A stretch of 64,000 nt of DNA from positions 23,337 to 87,336 of the forward strand of contig DCYT01000002.1 of assembly GCA_002331145.1 (NCBI GenBank), written 5' to 3'. Of this stretch, positions 3,620 to 56,725 are shown piece by piece. The notes beneath the pieces are model-generated. The model saw only the letters and a list, made by a program, of their open reading frames with translations, was not told the DNA's origin and searched no databases. How positions within the stretch are numbered: position 1 is the stretch's first letter; every line of letters starts with the position of its first letter. Both the position numbers and the translations under genes were made by a program. This stretch comes from Candidatus Minusculum obligatum. GTDB taxonomy: Bacteria; Patescibacteriota; Minisyncoccia; Phycocordibacterales; Phycocordibacteraceae.

Positions 3620-4366
3620 TTAGTTTGCTACGGTGATTTTTACAAATGCACCATTATTATCCTCAGCAGATTCAACAACTCCACTCTTGTGGTCAATTGC
3701 AACTGCAATCTGTAGATCAGTTCCAACCTTTGATCGGTCAAATCCGATTACGTACTCAATCTTTTCTCCAGGGAGAAGGTTCTGTACGTGCTCAGCTTTT
3801 CCTTCAAAGATGTAGGTTGTCTCAGTTGGCATTACAACATTGAATCGCCAATTAGTTCCTGTCTCTTTTGTTCCTTTATTCTCAACTGCAAACTTCACGG
3901 CAATTCGATCAGTTTTTGAAAGAGTTGATGTGGCAACAAAGTTATCTGCTGCATATCCACCAACAAGCTTTCCTGTTGCAAGAATAGTTGGCACAAGATC
4001 AGGAAGTCCGTTTGGATCTGATACTGGTGCTCCAGGATTCTGTTCAGTTACTTCTGTTGTTTCTCCTCCAGGTGTTGGAGTTACAGCAGGAGTCTCTACA
4101 ACAGGCTCCTCAACTTCCGGCTCAAGAACGATAGGGAAGTTGGTTGTTGGAGTTGTAGTGCTTGTCTCAACGACAATTACGTCTCCATCAGCTGGTACGA
4201 AGATGCTTGTTATACCTACGACAGCAGCTGAGAGTCCATTAACCGCACCGTTTACAACGGTAGGGATGAATCGAGCTGAATTTCCAGCAAGTACAACAGC
4301 AAGAGCAAGAAGGGTAATGAACCCAACTACTGCAAGACCATTGATTGCTGCGTTTTTTGTTTCCAT
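3620..4366 (-). CDS. Membrane-anchored secreted protein with an N-terminal TM helix, a Thr/Pro/Glu-rich linker and a C-terminal beta-rich adhesin-like (CARDB/DUF11-like) domain.
   Basis: N-terminal hydrophobic helix (LAVVGFITLLALAVVLAG), then a low-complexity linker (TSTTTPTTNFPIVLEPEVEEPVVETPAVTPTPGGETTEVTEQ), then a globular C-terminal domain (ENKGTKETGTNWRFNVV). Divergent from the sortase gene. Confidence 0.55.
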   Translation of the reverse strand: METKNAAINGLAVVGFITLLALAVVLAGNSARFIPTVVNGAVNGLSAAVVGITSIFVPADGDVIVVETSTTTPTTNFPIVLEPEVEEPVVETPAVTPTPGGETTEVTEQNPGAPVSDPNGLPDLVPTILATGKLVGGYAADNFVATSTLSKTDRIAVKFAVENKGTKETGTNWRFNVVMPTETTYIFEGKAEHVQNLLPGEKIEYVIGFDRSKVGTDLQIAVAIDHKSGVVESAEDNNGAFVKITVAN

Positions 4367-4478: not shown

Positions 4479-4491
4479 TATGCCAGTCAAT

Positions 4492-5172
4492 ATGACTGAG
4501 CGCAAGACAGTATTTGTACAGACAGTGCGAGTTATTCGCACAATCCTACGGAATAAGTGGAAATTCCTGGCAATTTTTGTAATTGCCTTTCTTACTTTTG
4601 TATGGATTCTTGGGCGTCTAGATTTGCTCCCAGAGCCAGACACTTCAAAGAGTCTAAGTACTATTACAATTTCAAAGGAAAAGAATTCTTTTCCTGCGGC
4701 AGCTGCAGTTGCACTAGCAAAAACAGCTGAAAAGCCAACTCGCGTTGTTATTGACTCAGTTGGTGTTGATGTTGAGGTAAATAATCCGTTTAAGACAGAT
4801 ATTGCCTCACTTGATAACTCACTACTCTCAGGAGCTGTGCGATATCCAACATCAGGAAAGCTTGGAGAGAATGGAAATGTTGTGATCTTTGGTCACAGTT
4901 CGTACCTTCCAGTTGTAAAGAATGAATACTTTAAGGCATTCAACGGACTTCAGAATCTAAAGCGTGGAGAGATTATTGAGGTGCATGGAGAAGGTCTTGT
5001 ATATGAGTATGAGGTAAGTCGTGTGTATGAGGCAGATGCCACAGATACACGGATTCCACTTACAAAAGATTCAAAGAAACTGACTCTTTCTACATGTAAT
5101 TCATTTGGTGATCTAAATGATCGACATGTGGTAGAGGCATATTTCGTGGGAAGCAAAAAGATTTCTTCGTAG
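4492..5172 (+). CDS. Sortase-family transpeptidase. The ORF track starts it at 4480; a start at 4492 is likelier given the promoter position.
   Basis: N-terminal TM anchor (FLAIFVIAFLTFVWILG), catalytic His in VVIFGHSSY, TLxTC Cys motif in LTLSTCNSFG, and a conserved Arg downstream. About 226 aa. Confidence 0.8.
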   Translation: MTERKTVFVQTVRVIRTILRNKWKFLAIFVIAFLTFVWILGRLDLLPEPDTSKSLSTITISKEKNSFPAAAAVALAKTAEKPTRVVIDSVGVDVEVNNPFKTDIASLDNSLLSGAVRYPTSGKLGENGNVVIFGHSSYLPVVKNEYFKAFNGLQNLKRGEIIEVHGEGLVYEYEVSRVYEADATDTRIPLTKDSKKLTLSTCNSFGDLNDRHVVEAYFVGSKKISS

Positions 5173-5246
5173 AAATTTCTTTGCTCTCTATGAGAGCGTG
5201 AACATTACAACCGTCGCTACGGCGACGCAACAGAGAGGAAAAGCCG

Positions 5247-6230
5247 ATGGTTATTCGAATCATCATTCTGGCTGCGTCGCTCATCTTCGGATCGGCGGCT
5301 CACGCTCAGACACCATGGACAAATTGGGGCTCAGCTCCATATGCGTCCAGTCAGGAAGAAGCTTTCGAGCTCCTGCCTGAAGCGCTTGTTGCGCTTGGGG
5401 TTCCGCAGGAACTTCACAGCGAATTCATTGATATGGTTTCCGAGAATCCGGATGGGGAAGAAATCTTCCTTGATCCGAATGATCGGCTCATCGCGATGAT
5501 GAGTGGGGGTGCAAACCCTCATGCCATGCATGACGTGCCTGTTGCAGCCATTCCGGTCAATGAGACTGGTACGGTTGTGCAGGCAGCGCGTGCGCGCAAA
5601 TGGGAGATTGAGTATGAAGGCGTCACGTACGTCCTCATCCTCCCGGAAATCTGTTTCAACTGGTCGTACAATACCTTCGAGGTTGAAGTACGAGAAGTTG
5701 AGGTGCCACCTCCTCCCGAGGAATGTGCCATTATCGTATTTCCGGCTCAAGAAGGCTGGGTTGTTCGAAACTTCTTCCTTGCGGAAGAGAGTCGACTGCC
5801 TGCTAGCAATTGCTGGGCACTGCTTGATGGCGTTGATCATGAAGATGGTGCACGTATAAGCTCCTTGCCTGGTCGTTGTGATAACTGCGATCTTGAGCCC
5901 TACTTGCGTTGGGCACGTCGTGAGCACGGTCTTCGTGGAAGTCCTGTGAACAGCGCTAAGTATGGCGCCGAACGTGGCAATGTGCATGCGGTAATCATTC
6001 CGATCTCGCAGATTGAAAACTACAATACGATCTGCGTGGGTCCAGATGAACAGCGCCAGCGCTATTCGCCGGTGACAGTCGAACCCAGTGATTGGGATTC
6101 GGCTCTCCGGGAAAACCCGTTCGCGATTGATTTGCCTCAAGGGCAAACAATTCTGATTACCCATCAAGTGAACATCGAGGGGCGGCACTTTGAGTCGCTT
6201 CCGCGACGTCGCACCTGGCTGTGGTGGTAG
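5247..6230 (+). CDS. Secreted hypothetical protein encoded in a GC-rich island of foreign composition (likely horizontally acquired).
   Basis: Sec-type signal peptide MVIRIIILAASLIFGSAAHA|QT. Codon usage is GC3-rich (ctg, gcg, ccg, cgt, ggc), unlike the aga/gga/ctt-rich flanking genes. SD-like gagga sits 9 nt upstream. No recognisable domain. The antisense ORF 5331..6188 is judged spurious. Confidence 0.55.
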   Translation: MVIRIIILAASLIFGSAAHAQTPWTNWGSAPYASSQEEAFELLPEALVALGVPQELHSEFIDMVSENPDGEEIFLDPNDRLIAMMSGGANPHAMHDVPVAAIPVNETGTVVQAARARKWEIEYEGVTYVLILPEICFNWSYNTFEVEVREVEVPPPPEECAIIVFPAQEGWVVRNFFLAEESRLPASNCWALLDGVDHEDGARISSLPGRCDNCDLEPYLRWARREHGLRGSPVNSAKYGAERGNVHAVIIPISQIENYNTICVGPDEQRQRYSPVTVEPSDWDSALRENPFAIDLPQGQTILITHQVNIEGRHFESLPRRRTWLWW

Positions 6231-6233
6231 GCA

Positions 6234-6277
6234 GTAGGAGAGTGCACTGCACTCTCCTACACACCTCTCTTTTTTAT
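6234..6277 (+). terminator. GC-rich hairpin plus T-tract terminating the GC-rich island gene.
   Basis: gtaggagagtgcactgcactctcctac is a near-perfect 12-13-bp stem. A ctcttttttat T-run lies 8 nt downstream. Confidence 0.45.
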
Positions 6278-6281
6278 ACTT

Positions 6282-9143
6282 ATGATTTCAAAACCAAAAA
6301 ATATCCTTGCATATGCAAAAGCACATCCGATTAAGTCGGCTGTTCTTGGTGCATTTACATTTTTTACAATTCTAGGTGCAGGCTTTGGAACATTTTATGC
6401 AATTGCACCTGAGAGTGCAGAGGCACTTATTACAGGTGGGCCTGGATGTTGCGGAGGAACTTATGATCCAATTATCGTTGATCCTTGGATTCCTGGCGGA
6501 GGAGGTGGCTTCGGCGGAGGAGGTGGCGGAGGAGGTGGATCTGCTCCTGCTCCAACATGTACGCTTTCTGCTAATCCAAACTCAATTCTTGCAGGAGGAA
6601 GCTCAACGCTCACTTGGACAACAAGTTATGCAAATGAGGTAACTATCGATAATGGTGTCGGAGGAGTTGCCATTGGTTCTGGGACAACAAGTGTAAGTCC
6701 ACCAAACACAACAACCTATAGGCTTTCTGCTACAAACACTATAACGGGACGAACTACTGTGTGTACTGCAGCAGTAACTGTTACTCCAGCTCCAGTAGCG
6801 CCAAGCTGTACGCTTGATATTGCGCCTGCAGTTGTTGAGCTTGGAAATTCAGCTTCAGCATCTTGGACAACAACAAACGGAAGCACTTTTAGTATTAGTG
6901 GAGGAATTGGGCCTGTAACACCAGTTGCAGCAGGAAGCACAACAATTACACCAACAGCTCTCGGTACGTATACATATATTGGAGTAGTAACGAGCGCCAC
7001 AGGAGAAACTGCGACGTGTACTGACTCACTTGAGGTCATTCCACCAATTGTGGTGAATGCGCCAAGTTGTGAACTCAATGTCATTCCAGAGACAATTACT
7101 ATTGGAGATACAGTATCTATTGAGTGGGACACTCGATTTGCTAACACATTTAGTATTGATAATGGAATTGGAGCAATTTCAATTCTTACAACACCAGTTG
7201 CGGGAGGAGTTGTAAAAACAGTGCCAACAACAGAAGGGACAATTACCTACACGGGAACAGTAACAGCGCTCGATGGAACTACTGTGACATGTTCTGATAC
7301 GGTAAACGTACTTCCTGTTGGAGTGGATGCTCCTGCATGTACCCTTACTACCGATGGACTTGGTGCTGGGGAAACTGAAACAACAATCTACTGGACACTC
7401 ATCAATGTAGTTTCAGCAACTCTAAATGGAAAGAGTATTGCTCCTGTTGATGGTTCACAAACTGTAGGGGCAGGAACCTACACTCTTACTGGATCAAATA
7501 CAGATGGAGTTGAGGTTACGTGTGGACTTGTAATCGAACCGCCGCTTGATGGACCTGCTTGTACGCTAACAGCAGACAAACTTTCTCTTGCTCCAGGTGA
7601 GACAACTACAATCAACTGGACAATTAACAACGCAACAGAAGCAACGCTACAGCACCTTGATGCAGTTTCTATCATTGATCCAACAGATGGATCACAGTCT
7701 GCGGTTGCAGGAACGTACACACTTTCTGTAGGGAATGGAGTACAGAGTGACACGTGTGAGGTAACAATTGCAACAGTAACTCCAGGAGTACTTAGTTGTA
7801 CGCTCGATATTGACGAGGGTGTTATTCGATCTGGACAGTCAGCGAATATGACGTGGAGTACCAATGAGGCTGTCTCATTTACTATCAATGGAGATGATAA
7901 GGATCTTTCAGGAACTGAAGTTATTCGTCCACTGGGAGTACAGATCTATACATACACAGGAATTGCGACAGACGCAGATGGAAACACTGTTGAGTGTGCA
8001 GATACTATTCAGGTAACAGGAGGATCAGGTGGAGGAGGTCTCTCATGTGCAATGAGCTTCACCGAGTCTAATATTAAGAGTGGAGGGAAATCAACACTTC
8101 GATGGGAGGTTAACAATGCTGATCCAAGCACCATTGAAATTAATCAGGGAATTGGAAGTGTAGATCCAATTGATAGTGCTGATGTTACCAAGAATGCTGT
8201 TGGAACACATGAGTATATTCTTACCGCTCGTGGAGATGGAGATCAGGTAACATGTCGAGCAACCCTAACTGTTTCAGGAGGATCAGGTGGATGTACAAGT
8301 GGTTGTGGAGGTGGAAGCCGCCTGCCACAGGTGACTATCGATTTCCTTAAGGGGCCAAATGAGCAGCCTCTTGCCTTTGTTACTCTTTCACAAATTCCAT
8401 ATACAGGAATTGAGCTTGGGCAATTTGGCACAGTTATTTACTGGCTATTCCTAACAATCTGGAGCGGTGCAGTTGCATACCTTGTATTGTTCAAGATTGT
8501 GCCATTTACAGGCCGAAAACTGGCTGCAGTTAAGAATGGTGTGTCTGAGGCGATAAATGCCACAGAAGAGGGTACAATGGATATAACTATGCATGAGGAA
8601 ATGGAAGATATTCAAATGGATGGATTCTCTCCAAAGCAAGGAGATGAAGCTCTTTCTGTTGAAGATATTGTTCGTGGTCTCTCACGAATGCATCAAGAGT
8701 CTCGACCTGTCGCATCTGAGATTGAGGTGGAGGAGGAAGAGCCTGAGGTGTATGAGGCCGATGTAGCGCGCGAGATGGAAACAGCTCCAGTACAAACAGC
8801 AACACCACACTCTACTGGAGAAGAGCTTCAGCTACTCAATGCTCTTATGAGTGGAGATCGAGACACAAGCTTTAGTTTGCTGCGACGTGCAACTCGAAAT
8901 GGAGGTCGTCCAGATCTATTGATTGAGAAAGTGCTTGTGCACCTTGATGCTGCATATCGAGCACGAATTGATGGAATTCCTTGTTCTGAGGATGTGCGAC
9001 GAGCAACTGCAGCTCTAGATACTGCGCTTCTTGAGGAGGTGATTAGTTCTCTTGCATCTGCAATTGATACAACATATTCACAGTCTCAAACTGGAGCAAA
9101 GCTAGCGCTCGCTAGGGCGCACGCGGTGATTGAGCGCGGATAA
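6282..9143 (+). CDS. Large surface protein. It has an N-terminal TM anchor, a Gly-rich segment, seven tandem Ig-like repeats of about 95 aa with two cysteines each, an internal sortase-like IPYTG motif followed by a TM helix and K/R, and a ~230-aa acidic/helical C-terminal tail.
   Basis: 953-aa continuous ORF. GGGGGFGGGGGGGGGS after TM1. Each repeat begins (P/L)(T/S/A)C(T/E/A)L...W(T/D)... and ends ...TC.. . Then SQIPYTGIELGQFGTVIYWLFLTIWSGAVAYLVLFKIVPFTGRK, followed by a cytoplasmic tail containing EIEVEEEEPEVYEAD. Confidence 0.8.
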   Translation: MISKPKNILAYAKAHPIKSAVLGAFTFFTILGAGFGTFYAIAPESAEALITGGPGCCGGTYDPIIVDPWIPGGGGGFGGGGGGGGGSAPAPTCTLSANPNSILAGGSSTLTWTTSYANEVTIDNGVGGVAIGSGTTSVSPPNTTTYRLSATNTITGRTTVCTAAVTVTPAPVAPSCTLDIAPAVVELGNSASASWTTTNGSTFSISGGIGPVTPVAAGSTTITPTALGTYTYIGVVTSATGETATCTDSLEVIPPIVVNAPSCELNVIPETITIGDTVSIEWDTRFANTFSIDNGIGAISILTTPVAGGVVKTVPTTEGTITYTGTVTALDGTTVTCSDTVNVLPVGVDAPACTLTTDGLGAGETETTIYWTLINVVSATLNGKSIAPVDGSQTVGAGTYTLTGSNTDGVEVTCGLVIEPPLDGPACTLTADKLSLAPGETTTINWTINNATEATLQHLDAVSIIDPTDGSQSAVAGTYTLSVGNGVQSDTCEVTIATVTPGVLSCTLDIDEGVIRSGQSANMTWSTNEAVSFTINGDDKDLSGTEVIRPLGVQIYTYTGIATDADGNTVECADTIQVTGGSGGGGLSCAMSFTESNIKSGGKSTLRWEVNNADPSTIEINQGIGSVDPIDSADVTKNAVGTHEYILTARGDGDQVTCRATLTVSGGSGGCTSGCGGGSRLPQVTIDFLKGPNEQPLAFVTLSQIPYTGIELGQFGTVIYWLFLTIWSGAVAYLVLFKIVPFTGRKLAAVKNGVSEAINATEEGTMDITMHEEMEDIQMDGFSPKQGDEALSVEDIVRGLSRMHQESRPVASEIEVEEEEPEVYEADVAREMETAPVQTATPHSTGEELQLLNALMSGDRDTSFSLLRRATRNGGRPDLLIEKVLVHLDAAYRARIDGIPCSEDVRRATAALDTALLEEVISSLASAIDTTYSQSQTGAKLALARAHAVIERG

Positions 9144-9237: not shown

Positions 9238-10982
9238 GGTGCAAGTGCTCGAGAGTCTCGCTCTTCTATAAGTTTTTGGATAAAGTCATCTACGTTTACT
9301 CCATCAAGTTTTCCAAGGTCTCGATGCTCAGGAGAAACTTCATTGCTCTCAACTTCTTTATCTCCAACAACAATTACATATGGAACTTTTTGTCCTTTGA
9401 ATCCATAGATACGCTTTCCAAGAGAAATGTTCTCAGCATTTACTTCAACTCGAATATTTTGCGCTTCAAGTTTTTCTTTTAGTTCTTGTGTGTATGCTGC
9501 ATGGTCTTCTGATACTGGCACAAGCCCAACTTGTATAGGTGAGAGCCATAGAGGGAATGCTCCTGCAAAATGCTCAATTGCAACTCCTAGGAATCGCTCA
9601 AGAGATCCTGAGATAGCTCGGTGGATCATAACAGGGCGCTTTTTCTTTCCATCACTGTCTGTATATTCAAGCTTAAATCGCTCAGGAAGGTTGAAATCAA
9701 GCTGTGCGGTAGCTAATTGCCACTCTCGTCCAATTGCGTCAGTTGCAACAAAATCAATTTTTGGACCATAGAATGCTGCCTCTCCAGGCTCAGTTACGTA
9801 CTCTTTTCCAATCTCTTCAATACAAGACTTCAAAGTGTTGATTGAATTTTCCCAAAGCTCAGGAGTTCCAAGGTACTTCTCTGGCTCCTCAGGATCATTG
9901 GTAGAAAGTCTTACTGCAAGTGGCATATCAAAGGCTTCGTAGAAGTTTTTGATGATGTCGTAGATTGCGAGCACCTCGTCTTTTACTTGATCTTCAGTAC
10001 AAAATACATGGGCATCGTCCTGTGTAATTGATCGAACTCGAGTGAGTCCTGCAAGTTGCCCTGTATTTTCGTCTCGATATACCGTTGTTACCTCAGAGTA
10101 CCTGATAGGGAGATCTTTGTATGAGCGAGGTTGTGAGGCAAAGATTTGTGTGTGGTGAGGACAGTTCATCGGCTTCATGATGAACTCGTCATCTGTCTTC
10201 TTGCTTTTTACAAAGAAAATATCATCTGCAAACTTGTCATAGTGTCCACTTGTTTTGTAGAGATCACACTTTGCCATATGAGGAATATTTACACGCTCAT
10301 ATCCATAAGGCTTTGCAAGTTCCCACACAAACTCTTCAAGCTCTTTACGCATGATATTTCCCTTGGGTGTAAATAGGGGAAGTCCAGAACCAACAAGAGG
10401 AGAGAATGCAAAGAGATCAAGCTCCTTTCCAATCTTTCGATGGTCTCGCTTTTTTGCCTCTTCTTGTTGTTCTTTGTATGCATCAAGATCAGCTTTAGAT
10501 TCAAATGCTATTCCATAGATACGAGTAAGCATTTGATTGTTCTCATCTCCCTGCCAGTATGCTCCAGCAACATTTGAGAGCATGAAGGCTTCGGGATCAA
10601 TGTCCTTTGAAGACTCTACGTGAGGTCCTTCACAAAGATCTGTGAAGTTTCCAATAGTGTATGTAGAAAGTTTCGCACCTTCGTCATTTAGCTTTTCAAT
10701 GAGTTCAAGCTTATGAGTCTGGTCCTTGAAGCGCTGCTTTGCATCCTCGTATGTAATTTCATGCATCTCAGGAGTAAATCCTTCTTTGAGTATTTCGCGC
10801 ATAAGTTCCTCCAGTTTTGGAAGATTCTCCTCATTTACAGGAGATGAGAGTTCAATATCGTAATAAAAACCATTGTCTGTTGCAGGTCCCGTTCCGAATT
10901 TTGCCTTATCATCGTGCTCGAGCACAGCGCCTGCAAGTATGTGTGCTAGAGAGTGTCGAATCTTCAAAAGTTTGTCATCCAT
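9228..10982 (-). CDS. thrS: Threonine--tRNA ligase, a short form without the N-terminal TGS domain
   Basis: 584 aa. Editing-domain His motif RHSLAHILAGAV, class II core (HRKIGKELDLF, MNCPHH, FYGPKIDF) and a C-terminal anticodon-binding domain. Confidence 0.9.
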   Translation of the reverse strand: MDDKLLKIRHSLAHILAGAVLEHDDKAKFGTGPATDNGFYYDIELSSPVNEENLPKLEELMREILKEGFTPEMHEITYEDAKQRFKDQTHKLELIEKLNDEGAKLSTYTIGNFTDLCEGPHVESSKDIDPEAFMLSNVAGAYWQGDENNQMLTRIYGIAFESKADLDAYKEQQEEAKKRDHRKIGKELDLFAFSPLVGSGLPLFTPKGNIMRKELEEFVWELAKPYGYERVNIPHMAKCDLYKTSGHYDKFADDIFFVKSKKTDDEFIMKPMNCPHHTQIFASQPRSYKDLPIRYSEVTTVYRDENTGQLAGLTRVRSITQDDAHVFCTEDQVKDEVLAIYDIIKNFYEAFDMPLAVRLSTNDPEEPEKYLGTPELWENSINTLKSCIEEIGKEYVTEPGEAAFYGPKIDFVATDAIGREWQLATAQLDFNLPERFKLEYTDSDGKKKRPVMIHRAISGSLERFLGVAIEHFAGAFPLWLSPIQVGLVPVSEDHAAYTQELKEKLEAQNIRVEVNAENISLGKRIYGFKGQKVPYVIVVGDKEVESNEVSPEHRDLGKLDGVNVDDFIQKLIEERDSRALAPTT

Positions 10983-11143
10983 ATAGCCTTACTATACAAC
11001 AAATGCGACCTATTGGGGCCGCATTTCATAATATAAACACAACCGCCAGAGAGCGCTTACCACGTTGTGGTTGTTGTGTTTGTTACGATCATAATAATAA
11101 ATAGAGAGTAGCAGATGGGTAAGGGAAGTCAATGTGAAAGGCG

Positions 11144-11326
11144 CTATGATTGTAGCGCCTTTTTCCTTTCCTTTCTTTTCTTCTCCAGTGCTCCAACTTT
11201 CTTTCGGAGTGATTTGCGAATGTTCACAACTTCTCTGTCGTCTGAGGTTTTCAGAACAATGATTTCAGTATTGATGCCTGCAATTTTTGCATCAAGAAGG
11301 AATATTTCCCGCTCTCGTTTTTCCAT
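11144..11326 (-). CDS. Small basic hypothetical protein (60 aa) downstream of dnaE, with a strong Shine-Dalgarno.
   Basis: GGGAGGaaaatATG: SD 6 nt upstream of the start. Lys/Arg-rich C-terminus KKVGALEKKRKERKKALQS. The 3' end contains an 8-bp stem hairpin. Confidence 0.4.
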   Translation of the reverse strand: MEKREREIFLLDAKIAGINTEIIVLKTSDDREVVNIRKSLRKKVGALEKKRKERKKALQS

Positions 11327-11355
11327 ATTTTCCTCCCACTTCTTGCTTCAAGATG

Positions 11356-14300
11356 CTACAAAGATTGTATTTTGTCAATGATAAGGCTTGTTTCGCCATT
11401 TCGGGCAGATAAACTTCCTTTTGTAACTACACATGAAGATTGGAAGAGAAGTCCATTGCACTGCTCATATAGTTTTGGAAATACAACACACTCAAGAGAC
11501 CCTGACTTATCTCCAATTTTTACAAAGGCCATTTTGTCTCCCTTCTTTGTTAGAAATGGTTTTACATCTTCAATCATTCCAGCAACTACTGTGGGGAGTG
11601 TGCTCTTGGGTCCATCAACTAATTGAGAAATATTCTTTTTTACATTCTTTAGTTTTTCTTCGTACTGATCAAGAGGGTGTCCGGATACATAAATTCCAAG
11701 AAGCTCTTTCTCCCATACAAGCTTGTCTTGCTTTGCTGCATCAGGTGCTTCTTCAAGATCAAGCCGGTGTGATGGGGTAAGAGATCCAAAGAGTGAGTCT
11801 TGAGCTCCTGCCTCAGCTCCTGCTTCTTTATGGAAGGTAAGCATTTGCTCAAGATTGTGAAGGAGTGTTCCTCGGTTTGCAAAAGAGTCTAGCGCACCAG
11901 ATTTGATAAGAGATTCAAGACCTTTCTTATTAAGAGCACTTGAAGTTACTCGAGAAAGGAAGTTTGCAAGACTCTCAAATTTTCCATTTGCTTCACGCTC
12001 TTCAATAATTGCATTGGCAACTCCTTCTCCAAAGTTTTTAATTGAAACTAATCCAAAGCGGATCTTTGTATTATTTTCAACAATCGTAAAGTCGGTATTA
12101 CTTTCATTTACATCAGGAGGAAGAACTGGAATTCCCATTCGCTCACACTCTGCAATTAGTATTGAAATTTTGTCGATTTCTCCCGCATCAGCGGTAAGGA
12201 GCGCTGTCATGTACGGAACAGGGTAGTTGGCCTTCATGTAGGCAGTTTGATAGGCAACACGTCCATAACTTGCGGCATGAGCTTTGTTAAATCCGTATCC
12301 GGCAAATGGGGCAATAAGTTCCCAAATTTGTGCAGCCTTTTCTGCAGTCATTCCATTTTCAACGCATCCCTTAAGGAATTTCTCATGCTGCCGTTCCATC
12401 TCTTCAGGAATTTTCTTTCCCATAGCCTTTCGGAGCTTGTCAGCCTCAAGCCATGAATATCCTGCAAGATGGATTGAAATAAGAAGCACGTCATCCTGGT
12501 AGGTAATCACTCCGTATGACATATCAAGAATGTCTTTCATTCGATCATCAAGATAAGTAATTTTCTGAGGGTTATATTTTCGCTCAATGTAATCGGGAAT
12601 AGATTCCATCGGACCTGGACGATACAGCGCTACCATCGCATTAATATCATTGATGTTTGTTGGCTTTAGTTCTTTAAGGAATCTTGTCATTCCAGAACCG
12701 TTCAATTGGAAGAGTCCTTCTGTTTGTCCTGTTGCAAGAAGTTTAAACGTCTTTTCATCATCGATAGGAACATTTTCAATATCAACGACATCACCAGTTT
12801 CTTCTTTTGCCATGCGCACAGCGTCCGCCAAGATCGCAAGGTTTTTAATACCAAGGAAATCAAATTTAAGAAGACCTGCATCTTCAACAGAGTGCATGTC
12901 GTACTGTGTGATAAGTTTTCCTCCTTTGGGATCGAGCTGAATCGGTGCCCAATCAATAAGTGGAGTAGGAGAGATCACAACTCCAGCAGCGTGCACTCCA
13001 GTTTGGCGAGCACACCCCTCAACTTTCTTTGCAAGATCAATAATCTCTTTTACATCCTCGTCTCCTTTATAGAGCTTCTTAAGTTCAGGCTCCATTTTAA
13101 GAGCAGTGTCGATTGTCATAGGGAATCCCTGGCTTCCAATAGGGATAAGCTTTGCAATACGGTCTCCAACCATATATGCGTGTCCTAGGGCTCGTGCTGT
13201 ATCTCGAACTGCAGCGCGGGCTGCCATAGTTCCAAATGTACCAATCTGCGCAACATGATCTTCTCCATACTTTTCTCGAGCGTAATTAATAGCTTCATCT
13301 CGTCTATTATCGGCAAAGTCCATGTCGATATCAGGAGCAGACGGTCGCTCTGGATTTAGGAATCGCTCAAACGGAAGTTTGTATTCAAGTGGGTTTACGT
13401 TTGTAATTCCAAGGAGGTAAGTGGTTAAAGACCCCGCAACAGATCCACGAATAGTCGTAAGGATTCCTTTCTCTCGTGCAAAGCGCAGAAGGTCTCCCAC
13501 TACAAGGAAATATGGCGCGTACCCTTTGTGCTTGATAATTCCAAGCTCATACTCAAGACGCTCTACAAGTTCGTCAGTCTTTTCTAAGTCTCGAGTTTTA
13601 ATTCCTTCATACGCTAGGCGAGAGAGCTCCTCCTGGTACCCAAGTCCACTTTCAATCTTAATGTCAGGGAATACCCAGTTTCCAAGTTCAAAATCTAGAT
13701 CAATACTATCCGCAATCTTTTTTGAGTTGGCAATTGCTTCAGGAATTTTTTTAAATGCTTTTTCAATATCTTTTGGTTTTTTAAATGAGAGATCTAGTCC
13801 TGTTGTTCCTGTTGCGTGCCGCCCTTCTCTGATTCGCATAAGCACCTCACGAGCCTCACGGTCCTCAGGCTTTAGGTAGTACACTTCCTGGTTTGCAACA
13901 ACAGGCACATCTTCTGCTTTCCCAAGTTCAATTATTTTTTCAACAAGAGCTCCCCGTTCTTTTTTCTCTGGGTGATCTGTTATCTCAAGGTAGAGATCAT
14001 CTTTAAAAATATCTTTGTATGAAGAAAGGAGTGCTGCGGCTTCTGTTGCATTTCCTTGATTTAAAAGAACAGAAGTTTCTCCTTGGTGTGTTGGGATAAT
14101 TGCTATTACACCCTCGCTACTTTCTTTGAGAAGCTCAAGGTCTACACGTGGTCGCTCGCAAAAACCAGTAAGGTATGAGTCAGTAATGATCTTTAGAAGG
14201 TTTTTATACCCTGTTTCGTTTTTTGCTAGGAGAATAATTCGGGCCAGGTCATGATCTCTTTCGTGATCCTCTTTTCGACTGCCGGGCGCTACATAGGTGT

Positions 14301-14499: not shown

Positions 14500-14542
14500 T
14501 TAGACACTAGTATACCAAAACAGATGATATAGTGTCTTGTAT

Positions 14543-15007
14543 ATGAAAAAGGGATTTACTCTCATAGAGCTTTTGGTGGTAGTTGCCATTATTGGAATGC
14601 TTTCTTCTGTAGTTTTGGCATCTTTAAACACTGCACGGGGAAATGCACGAGACACACGACGTCAGTCAGATCTTAAGCAAATACAGACTGCTTTAGAGCT
14701 TTATTACAATGTAAATAATGCATATCCAAATGAGACAGGATGTGACTCAAGTCAGGGAACTTCTTCAGGAGGATGTCCATCAGGAGGACTTGGAGGAAGC
14801 GACTGGAACTCAAGCAGCTTTATCTATCAAGCTCTTGTACCCACGTACATTCAGGCTCTTCCAGTAGACCCTATGAACAGCGGAGTCTATTACTACACAT
14901 ATGAACCAGCAAATCCTGCAGGACAAAACTACTGTCTTGGTGTTCCGCTTGAAGGTGGAGGGAGGTTTAACTTAAAAGATGGAACACCACTTGCAGGAAG
15001 TTGTTAA
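14543..15007 (+). CDS. Type IV pilin or pseudopilin with a prepilin-peptidase cleavage/N-methylation motif
   Basis: MKKGFTLIELLVVVAIIGMLSSVV: a class III signal with G-F at the cleavage site and E+5. The C-terminal globular part has paired Cys residues. The ORF track start at 14537 is 2 codons upstream. Confidence 0.75.
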   Translation: MKKGFTLIELLVVVAIIGMLSSVVLASLNTARGNARDTRRQSDLKQIQTALELYYNVNNAYPNETGCDSSQGTSSGGCPSGGLGGSDWNSSSFIYQALVPTYIQALPVDPMNSGVYYYTYEPANPAGQNYCLGVPLEGGGRFNLKDGTPLAGSC

Positions 15008-42549: not shown

Positions 42550-43242
42550 ATGTTTGGAGTTAGAAAGCGGGTCCTTGGTCTAGGACTTTTTCTTATTGCT
42601 ATGCTTGTTGTATGGTTTTTCCTCAAGGACGTAGTAACCCTTGAGGTATTGCAGGCAAAGCAAATGGAGCTAAAGGCATTTGTTGATACAAACTATTTTC
42701 TAGCACTCCTTATCTTCTCTGTTGTGTATGCGATCTCAGCGACAACCGCTTTCCCTCTAGGGGGTATTTTTGTACTTCTTGCAGGATTCCTCTTTGGCGT
42801 AATTGTGGGAACTGTAGTTACTGTGCTTGCTGCAACACTTGGAGGAGCTGCGCTTTTCCTTGTAACCAAGTATGGATTTAAAGAATGGGTAGAGAATCAC
42901 TATGGAAAGTACCTAGCACCCATTGAAAAGGAGTTAAGTGAGCATCCAGCCTCGTACATGCTTTTTTTGCGATTTATGCCGGTAGTTCCTTATGTTGTAA
43001 TTAATGTGGTGCCAGCTCTTGTAAATGTACGCTTCAGTACATTTTTATGGACAAGTATTATCGGTCTTTTGCCAGGAGCACTCATCTTTACGATAGCAGG
43101 GAAGGAGCTCTCCCGTATTGCTAGTACGGGTGATGTAATGACTCCATCATTTATCTTTGCACTCCTATTGCTTGGCGGGCTATCTCTTGTGCCGCTTGTA
43201 TATAGGAAATATCGTAAATATAAAGAACGCAACGTATCTTGA
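42550..43242 (+). CDS. TVP38/TMEM64 (DedA-related) family membrane protein
   Basis: LRFMPVVPYVVINVVPAL signature with multiple TM helices. Confidence 0.75.
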   Translation: MFGVRKRVLGLGLFLIAMLVVWFFLKDVVTLEVLQAKQMELKAFVDTNYFLALLIFSVVYAISATTAFPLGGIFVLLAGFLFGVIVGTVVTVLAATLGGAALFLVTKYGFKEWVENHYGKYLAPIEKELSEHPASYMLFLRFMPVVPYVVINVVPALVNVRFSTFLWTSIIGLLPGALIFTIAGKELSRIASTGDVMTPSFIFALLLLGGLSLVPLVYRKYRKYKERNVS

Positions 43243-55771: not shown

Positions 55772-56725
55772 ATGGATAAAGTAAAAATAGCACTCGTAGG
55801 TATCGCATTCATTCTCTTGTCAATCATGCTTGTTGGAGGATTTAGTCTACTGACTTCTCCTACTATGGTTCCAGGATTTTCTCTGGCATTTTTGGCAGGG
55901 ATATCAATGATTGTGCTTCCGTGTACTTTTCCTCTTGTGTTTATCATTGTTCCTCTTGCGCTCTCAAAACAAAACGTGAAGAAAGGCATCATTATGGCAC
56001 TTCTTTTTGGTCTTGGTCTTACCGTTACATTTACGCTGTATGGTCTAGCACTCGGATGGCTGGGTGGTTTCGTTGGATTGTACAAAGTTGTCAGTGCAAT
56101 GCTTCTTATTGGAGGTATAGCAGCCCTCTTCTTTGGATTGGCAGAACTTGGTTTAGTGAACTTCTCTTTGCCATTTCGAAAAACTATTCTTCCACAGTCG
56201 CTCCAGCAAAAGAATGACTACATACGGAGCTTCTTTCTAGGCTTCTTCTTGGGAAACGCCGGAGTTGGTTGTCCAAATCCAGCCTTCTACATATTGTTTG
56301 GGTACGTTGCCACACTTGGAGATCCTATTACTGGGGCGTCTCTTGGAGCATTACATGGAATAGGAAGAATGGTTCCTCTTCTATTTCTAGTAGTTCTTGC
56401 AATTCTTGGAATAAATATGATGGAAAAGGTGAGTGCATATCAGGAAAGGGTAAAGCGTTGGGTTGCATGGTCGCTTGTTGTGCTTGGAGCATTCATACTT
56501 AACTATGGACTCTTTGGCATGGCATGGTTTGAAAAATCAGGTATTCATGAAGCATGGAATCAGTTCCTTCTTGCGGTAGTTCCAAAAATTGCAGAGTCAG
56601 CAGAGCTTGAGTCAGCTCTGCAGCTTCCGCAGGGTGTTGGTGGTATTATGCCCTGGATAGTTCTTGGTGCGGTTATAAGTGGGGTAATTGTATGGAGTGC
56701 GGTTAAGGCACGAAATAGTAAATAA
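55772..56725 (+). CDS. DsbD_2/CcdA-like thiol-disulfide transmembrane electron transporter (second copy in the window)
   Basis: Cys in TM1 (IVLPCTFPLV) and Cys in a later TM (GVGCPNPAFYIL). About 8 TM helices. Confidence 0.65.
   Translation: MDKVKIALVGIAFILLSIMLVGGFSLLTSPTMVPGFSLAFLAGISMIVLPCTFPLVFIIVPLALSKQNVKKGIIMALLFGLGLTVTFTLYGLALGWLGGFVGLYKVVSAMLLIGGIAALFFGLAELGLVNFSLPFRKTILPQSLQQKNDYIRSFFLGFFLGNAGVGCPNPAFYILFGYVATLGDPITGASLGALHGIGRMVPLLFLVVLAILGINMMEKVSAYQERVKRWVAWSLVVLGAFILNYGLFGMAWFEKSGIHEAWNQFLLAVVPKIAESAELESALQLPQGVGGIMPWIVLGAVISGVIVWSAVKARNSK

Follow-up and report, generated by a model that had tools for sequence, protein, structure and literature searches.

A conserved Paceibacteria gene cassette linking a sortase to a candidate xPYTG substrate and a hypervariable GC-rich gene

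The sortase gene analysed here – located in a 64,000-nucleotide stretch of a Candidatus Minusculum obligatum contig, referred to as the window – belongs to a group of genes whose order is conserved throughout a class of the ultra-small Patescibacteria: the sortase is followed by a GC-rich gene that we call X and by a gene for a bitopic membrane protein carrying an xPYTG motif. Together with the gene of a CARDB-domain membrane protein, these probably form a vertically inherited four-gene envelope cassette of the Paceibacteria, situated between gyrB and thrS, in which the sortase acts on the xPYTG motif of its neighbour and X is a native, hypervariable accessory. X would look compositionally foreign in this low-GC genome because it is hypervariable and its variants appear to have been replaced between lineages. 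A first-pass annotation had suggested that the sortase and its substrate were an ancestral pair later split by a foreign island; the pairing gains support from synteny that holds in both directions and from an invariant P-x-T-G signature, and the insertion is refuted by the criterion proposed along with it, because relatives carry homologous X genes between the two partners. The features of the locus are listed in Table 1.

Table 1. Features of the sortase cassette (nucleotide positions in the window; residues of the respective protein)
Feature	Residues	Position	Strand	Details
CARDB-domain membrane protein		3620..4366	-	248 aa, divergent from the sortase; Pfam CARDB 28.4 bits; N-terminal membrane helix, Thr/Pro/Glu-rich linker, C-terminal CARDB Ig-like domain
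Sortase		4480..5172	+	230 aa as maximal ORF
Sortase membrane helix	29-45			N-terminal
Sortase catalytic His139	139	4894-4896		in IFGHSS
Sortase catalytic Cys206	206	5095-5097		in LTLSTC
Sortase catalytic Arg215	215	5122-5124		in DRHVV
Gene X		5247..6230	+	327 aa, secreted; signal peptide ending SAAHA, followed by QT; at least 4 conserved Cys
Perfect 13-bp inverted repeat		6234..6260	+	begins 4 nt after the X stop; followed by T-run 6270-6275
xPYTG protein		6282..9143	+	953 aa, bitopic membrane protein, candidate sortase substrate
xPYTG protein, N-terminal membrane helix	19-42	6336-6407		followed by Gly-rich stretch
xPYTG protein, Ig-like repeats	93-671	6558-8294		seven, Cys-bracketed, followed by Gly-rich linker
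IPYTG pentapeptide	705-709	8394..8408	+	within conserved block LAFVTLSQ-IPYTG-IELGQFGT
xPYTG protein, motif region				candidate cleavage peptides LSQIPYTGIELG, VTLSQIPYTGIELGQ
xPYTG protein, membrane helix	715-737	8424..8492	+	followed by basic residues K738, R745, K746
xPYTG protein, cytoplasmic all-helical domain	844-952	8811..9137	+	predicted fold like the clamp-loader collar (domain III)

The sortase open reading frame is given at its maximal extent, and the true start is probably Met5 (position 4492), the residue from which the sortases of relatives are called. Its match to the Pfam Sortase family (PF04203) scores 70.4 bits, above the gathering cutoff of 26.6, and in the alignment of 30 family members the conservation of His139, Cys206 and Arg215 is complete or at least 90%. 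The IFGHSS and LTLSTC motifs that had been read from the sequence are present and the catalytic triad is intact; the accompanying statement that this is the only sortase in the window is also borne out, a family HMM applied to the six-frame ORFs of the 64-kb window having returned no second one. The family as a whole is large and Patescibacteria-specific, with 1,375 matches at E<=1e-3.

Judged by HMM scores against the model cutoffs, the sortase is outside every curated NCBIfam class, and class membership therefore gives no guidance on its compatibility with IPYTG. The class C, D, E, F and GN models score it at 24-34 bits against cutoffs of 140-166 bits, the best being SrtD at 34 bits, and the class B model does not match it. 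Across the 30 family members the best NCBIfam E-values are 6.9e-17 for class E and ~1e-12 for class D, and among solved structures the class D and class A enzymes come closest (E ~1e-6). Class D and E sortases are the nearest by HMM score and PDB match (4d70, 2ln7), and share with the cassette enzyme a His/Cys/Arg domain and an N-terminal membrane anchor, but the cassette family scores only ~30-60 bits where members of those classes must pass cutoffs of 140-165 bits. Class D and E sortases recognise LPxTA- and LAxTG-type signals, a preference that is uninformative for xPYTG.

The candidate substrate is encoded 1,110 bp downstream, counting from the sortase stop to the start of the xPYTG gene, in agreement with the ~1.1 kb estimated at first pass. 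The Ig-like repeats of its ectodomain are ~75-90 aa long, each bracketed by a Cys pair. Matches to [LIV]PxTG in the ORFs of the window are IPYTG (aa 705) and VPFTG (aa 740), both in this protein, and one in an antisense ORF, leaving the 6282-9143 product as the only window protein with a sortase-type motif, as had been claimed. The pentapeptide alone is at chance level: shuffled ORFs would give 1.27 occurrences, and the window has three (P=0.14).

P, T and G are invariant in 42 of 42 tabulated orthologue motifs and Y is found in 39, and in ten further orthologues the PYTG core is unchanged and position 1 is T, M, L, A, I or V. The motif is embedded in a block of ~8 conserved residues on each side, extending into the membrane helix, for which the 42 orthologues give the consensus L-A-[YF]-[LV]-Y-L-S-[QE]-[IV]-P-Y-T-G-L-[DE]-L-G-P-x-G-T; the primed side, G(L/I/F)(D/E)LGPxGT, is conserved as well. 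In every orthologue a Gly-rich linker precedes the block, and the membrane helix and basic residues follow it. An AlphaFold 2 (AF2) model leaves the IPYTG segment unstructured, with the membrane helix starting immediately afterwards.

IPYTG is not a classical C-terminal sorting signal, because 244 residues follow it here and 188-312 in every orthologue, including a folded cytoplasmic domain. The last ~110 residues form a helical domain that is confidently predicted, and in the model this domain resembles the clamp-loader collar. Searches with PDB profiles and Pfam revealed no similarity at the sequence level to clamp loaders or to any other entry of these databases, and the xPYTG protein does not have the make-up of a clamp-loader subunit, in which AAA+ domains I-II are combined with collar domain III (as in tau, delta, delta' and RFC). 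The C-terminal module – conserved block, membrane helix and cytoplasmic domain – defines a family that is widespread in Paceibacterota and carries variable ectodomains, one of which matches the Pfam SpaA_2 domain.

A loose scan for classical CWSS found no other candidate substrates in the window or among ~3,300 ORFs from ~160 related loci. Two window ORFs with sorting-signal-like C-termini, 42550-43242 (IASTG...) and 55772-56725 (IAESA...), each with a hydrophobic segment and a basic tail behind the motif, were rejected as polytopic membrane proteins, and the remaining matches from the ~160 loci were set aside as polytopic membrane proteins or spurious antisense ORFs. Some 'short' xPYTG proteins (P0123, P0124 and others), with the motif at residue ~14-25, could be taken as counter-evidence to a sorting signal, but mostly look like truncated gene calls, because they start inside the conserved ...LPHxxxQPLAY... 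sequence, many are on short contigs, and contigs often break here. Of the 80 loci recovered with the module as query (L089-L168), most lie on contigs that start inside the xPYTG gene, and assemblies seem to break in its repetitive, hypervariable ectodomain.

To describe the neighbourhood, each GTDB species with a sortase alignment was represented by a single genome. This gave 80 loci, with sortase identities to the window down to ~42%, in which cassette members were located by HMM search of the six-frame ORFs. Among the 51 loci with at least 4.5 kb of downstream sequence, 48 encode the xPYTG module on the same strand no more than 2.5 kb downstream of the sortase. The reverse test, a metagenome scan with the C-terminal module as query, yielded 25 loci with at least 2.5 kb of upstream sequence, and 24 of them have a same-strand sortase upstream. 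A CARDB homologue occurs in 87/89 scanned loci, nearly always as the gene immediately before the sortase and in divergent orientation; the CARDB protein has no sortase-type motif. Relatives whose sortases are 97%, 76% and 71% identical to that of the window – the last being the closed genome UBA2103 – share the order gyrB, CARDB (-), sortase, X, xPYTG, thrS (-), dnaE (-). The surrounding core genome is similarly constant, with gyrB upstream in 75 of 84 loci and thrS downstream in 67 of 72, and synteny is therefore weaker-than-usual evidence of functional coupling.

With regard to mechanism, we lean slightly towards cleavage of the xPYTG protein by the sortase between T and G, which we take to be the likeliest way for the pair to work. 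The membrane-anchored sortase would recognise the exposed juxtamembrane xPYTG segment of the neighbouring protein and cut between T and G, and the Ig-repeat ectodomain would then be transferred to an envelope acceptor. Peptidoglycan/lipid II would be this acceptor, although the CARDB protein or X might also serve. Cleavage would leave the membrane helix, with its clamp-loader-collar-like cytoplasmic domain, in the membrane. X would act as a native accessory of the sortase system, with variants exchanged between lineages.

The constancy of gyrB and thrS as neighbours also suits a different reading, one that is unlikely but deserves to be taken seriously: the xPYTG block may be a juxtamembrane element of a bitopic receptor-like protein, serving in oligomerisation, partner binding or recognition by some other protease, with the sortase acting on unlinked substrates and the adjacency reflecting frozen gene order or shared envelope regulation. 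The long, conserved and folded cytoplasmic domain that follows the motif fits such a role, as do the variability of position 1, the conservation that runs beyond the pentapeptide into the membrane helix and a pentapeptide that is not by itself above chance. Against this, every orthologue has the invariant P, T and G, correctly placed with respect to the linker, the helix and the basic residues, the linkage of sortase and xPYTG holds both ways (48/51 and 24/25), all four cassette proteins are envelope proteins, and none of the neighbourhoods scanned offers an alternative CWSS.

Two further proposals seem improbable to us. In the first, the cassette would be a Patescibacteria-specific surface system in which cleavage at xPYTG fixes or releases a rapidly diversifying Ig-repeat adhesin that works with the exchangeable X, perhaps in host recognition by these episymbionts, and leaves a membrane-tethered collar-like domain with a new N-terminal Gly that could signal or oligomerise inside the cell. 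The sortase would then drive a transmembrane coupling device, not simply process an anchoring signal; we would give this a small chance. Slightly less probable again is a sortase-polymerised fibre or pilus, in which the Thr of the xPYTG ectodomain is joined to a Lys in X or in the CARDB protein, or else to a second xPYTG ectodomain, and not to the cell wall. The structural matches are to generic beta-sandwiches and Foldseek returned nothing significant, the YPK-type pilin motif is absent from X and from the xPYTG protein, a sorting-type motif is present in only one cassette protein, and the class C HMM scores 24 bits against a cutoff of 160. The locus thus departs from sortase-assembled pilus loci, which combine a class C sortase with at least two CWSS pilins bearing YPKN.

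Cleavage of a dedicated neighbour would place the cassette beside other single-target sortases, such as those of class GN ('marine', TIGR03784), which have an adjacent target, and SrtB, which acts with IsdC. As in those systems, the cassette sortase is encoded near one protein with a variant motif, and the pairing is conserved across many genomes. It differs from class GN in its score (24.5 bits against a cutoff of 158), and from both class GN and SrtB-IsdC in the motif itself – xPYTG with a conserved primed side and a 188-312-residue tail containing a folded domain – and in having two extra conserved partners, CARDB and the hypervariable X. Compared with the classical LPXTG signal of class A substrates, the xPYTG protein has the same succession of Ig-like ectodomain, Gly-rich spacer, [I/V]PxTG, helix and basic residues, but its motif lies 244 residues from the C-terminus, a conserved domain replaces the short charged tail, and the flanks of the pentapeptide are almost invariant.

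The DNA between the sortase and the xPYTG gene is GC-rich, as had been noted, and the GC-rich block coincides with the single ORF of X, at 5247-6230 (GC 0.535; window 0.42). By GC3, no other gene of the window is as strong an outlier as X (0.523, with a median of 0.325). Its AlphaFold model (pLDDT 74) has N-terminal helices followed by beta-sandwich domains, and both X and the xPYTG module are without a model in Pfam and NCBIfam. Among 1.84 billion representatives, a profile search recovered 246 relatives of X, and X may be modular, because many of these match one half only. An antisense ORF (5331-6188, minus strand, 285 aa, 'GC3' 0.663) was rejected as a real gene: it is not kept open in relatives, with 39-45% open coverage in the close relatives L005 and L010, and its high 'GC3' is the GC1 of X. 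X is preferred because it has homologues at the protein level, a signal peptide and a confident fold, and the antisense ORF is most readily accounted for by the GC richness of the sense gene. Downstream of X, the inverted repeat and T-run may separate X from the xPYTG gene as a terminator or attenuator; a promoter-like site at 6258-6286 overlaps the same region, and Rfam gave no match in the window.

The slot between the sortase and the xPYTG gene was checked in relatives for adjacency without an island, the pattern that a later insertion would predict, and was mostly found to hold a homologue of X. In the relatives with 97%, 76% and 71% identical sortases, X is 98%, 56% and 25% identical, respectively, with a GC content of 0.50-0.54 against 0.43-0.44. 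In the loci found through the sortase, the slot is filled by an ORF of ~300-400 aa with a signal peptide; when both locus sets are combined, an ORF of 150 aa or more occupies it in 75 of 78 loci. The slot ORFs make up one divergent family: an iterative HMM search links 65/78 of them to X, and BLAST places 70 of 72 in one cluster. High GC is a trait of this family, X being GC-richer than its own locus in 54 of 65 species.

The three loci in which the slot is empty look like secondary losses, because they are nested among X-bearing lineages and one of them keeps a remnant of X. In that locus (L118, at 5507-5731) X is gone except for ~85 bp of its 3' end, and contigs that are 97-99% identical (L116/L120/L114) carry X, so that its presence or absence is polymorphic within one population. 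The other two, L149 (with L014) and L136, are nested among X-bearing lineages at ~70% sortase identity.

X diverges in a different manner from its neighbours. Over 44 loci, pairwise identity correlates with that of the sortase at rho 0.80 for the C-terminal module and 0.74 for CARDB, but at 0.10 for X, and normalised BLAST scores fall from 0.51 for the sortase through 0.42 for the C-terminal module, 0.28 for the proximal ectodomain and 0.22 for the distal ectodomain to 0.07 for X. Among close pairs, X similarity is bimodal, at either ~0 or 0.5-0.97, and X types are shared incongruently: L015 and L039 have one type and L018 and L021 another, yet L015 is nearer to L018 by sortase. In two congeneric loci (L059 and L063) the flanks are ~80% identical at the DNA level, and identity drops to ~40-45% precisely across X and into the following gene, for its first ~500 nt (~10700-12430), recovering downstream. 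X and the distal ectodomain were replaced together in this pair, but co-variation between them has no general support (rho 0.12). Between the window and L005, the N-terminal half of X is 81-84% identical in nucleotides, like the flanks, and the C-terminal half 35-57%; between the window and UBA2103 the whole of X is at background identity.

A shared pool from which X types are repeatedly replaced would account for these data, as would an old polymorphism, and GC-biased conversion at a recombination hot spot may contribute. The GC of X follows that of the host genome with a slope of 0.43 (r 0.54), compared with 0.95 (r 0.95) for the sortase, and with such replacement the occupant of the slot may well be partly 'foreign'; the slot itself is ancestral. 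Abrupt losses of DNA identity, limited to X and the distal ectodomain in congeners otherwise ~80% identical, and X types that are incongruent with neighbouring genes recall the variable surface-protein loci that conserved genes flank in host-associated bacteria. In contrast to such hypervariable replacement cassettes, no repeats, recombinase or silent copies were seen in the X loci.

The later insertion of a foreign GC-rich island between an originally adjacent sortase and substrate is thus very improbable: the GC3 of X, its poor tracking of host composition and the direct abutment of sortase and xPYTG gene in 3/78 loci would be expected of it, but X homologues fill the slot at every depth sampled, the X-less loci are nested and include the remnant in L118 with its X-bearing sister contigs, the N-terminal half of X was co-inherited to judge by a similarity to L005 that equals that of the flanking genes, and the borders (5200-6260) have no flanking direct repeats, tRNA genes (none occur in the window) or integrase or other mobility gene. 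Of the marks of a genomic island, X therefore shows the atypical composition, and neither absence from relatives nor insertion signatures.

Méheust et al. (PMC6744442) report that over half of the CPR/Patescibacteria genomes have a sortase family. We found no substrate named in that study or in the other CPR literature searched, our literature search found no relevant mention of IPYTG, and there appears to be no earlier description of the cassette, of its atypical bitopic substrate or of how X behaves. What we propose is a dedicated target for a CPR sortase, carrying an invariant PYTG-type motif and encoded two genes downstream across the whole class. Hypervariability, as seen in X and the ectodomain, is to be expected of proteins that make host contact in organisms living on other cells, and a GC-rich gene within a low-GC genome need not mean insertion. 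For annotation, X, the xPYTG module and the CARDB partner are three uncharacterised families that can be defined and linked to one another.

Some further observations concern individual loci. Between the window and L009 (UBA3533), which share ~92-96% DNA identity, the ectodomain segments 6452-6779 and 7334-7580 have no BLAST alignment, and the CARDB-sortase-X block is 96.5% identical, above the flanking housekeeping genes; judged from these alignments, the xPYTG ectodomain is mosaic even between near-conspecifics. One xPYTG-module protein, encoded at 7479-8888 of L092, is the sole case without an upstream sortase; its N-terminus has a double zinc-ribbon-like CxxC repeat and then poly-Pro in place of the signal/membrane helix, the genes upstream are metabolic (aldehyde dehydrogenase-like), and the locus may be a chimeric contig or a variant architecture. 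Beyond the cassette, 14537-15007 of the window encodes a type IV pilin-like protein (N_methyl motif, weak T2SSG match) between dnaE and an RNase HII-like gene, and this neighbour of dnaE is also present in relatives.
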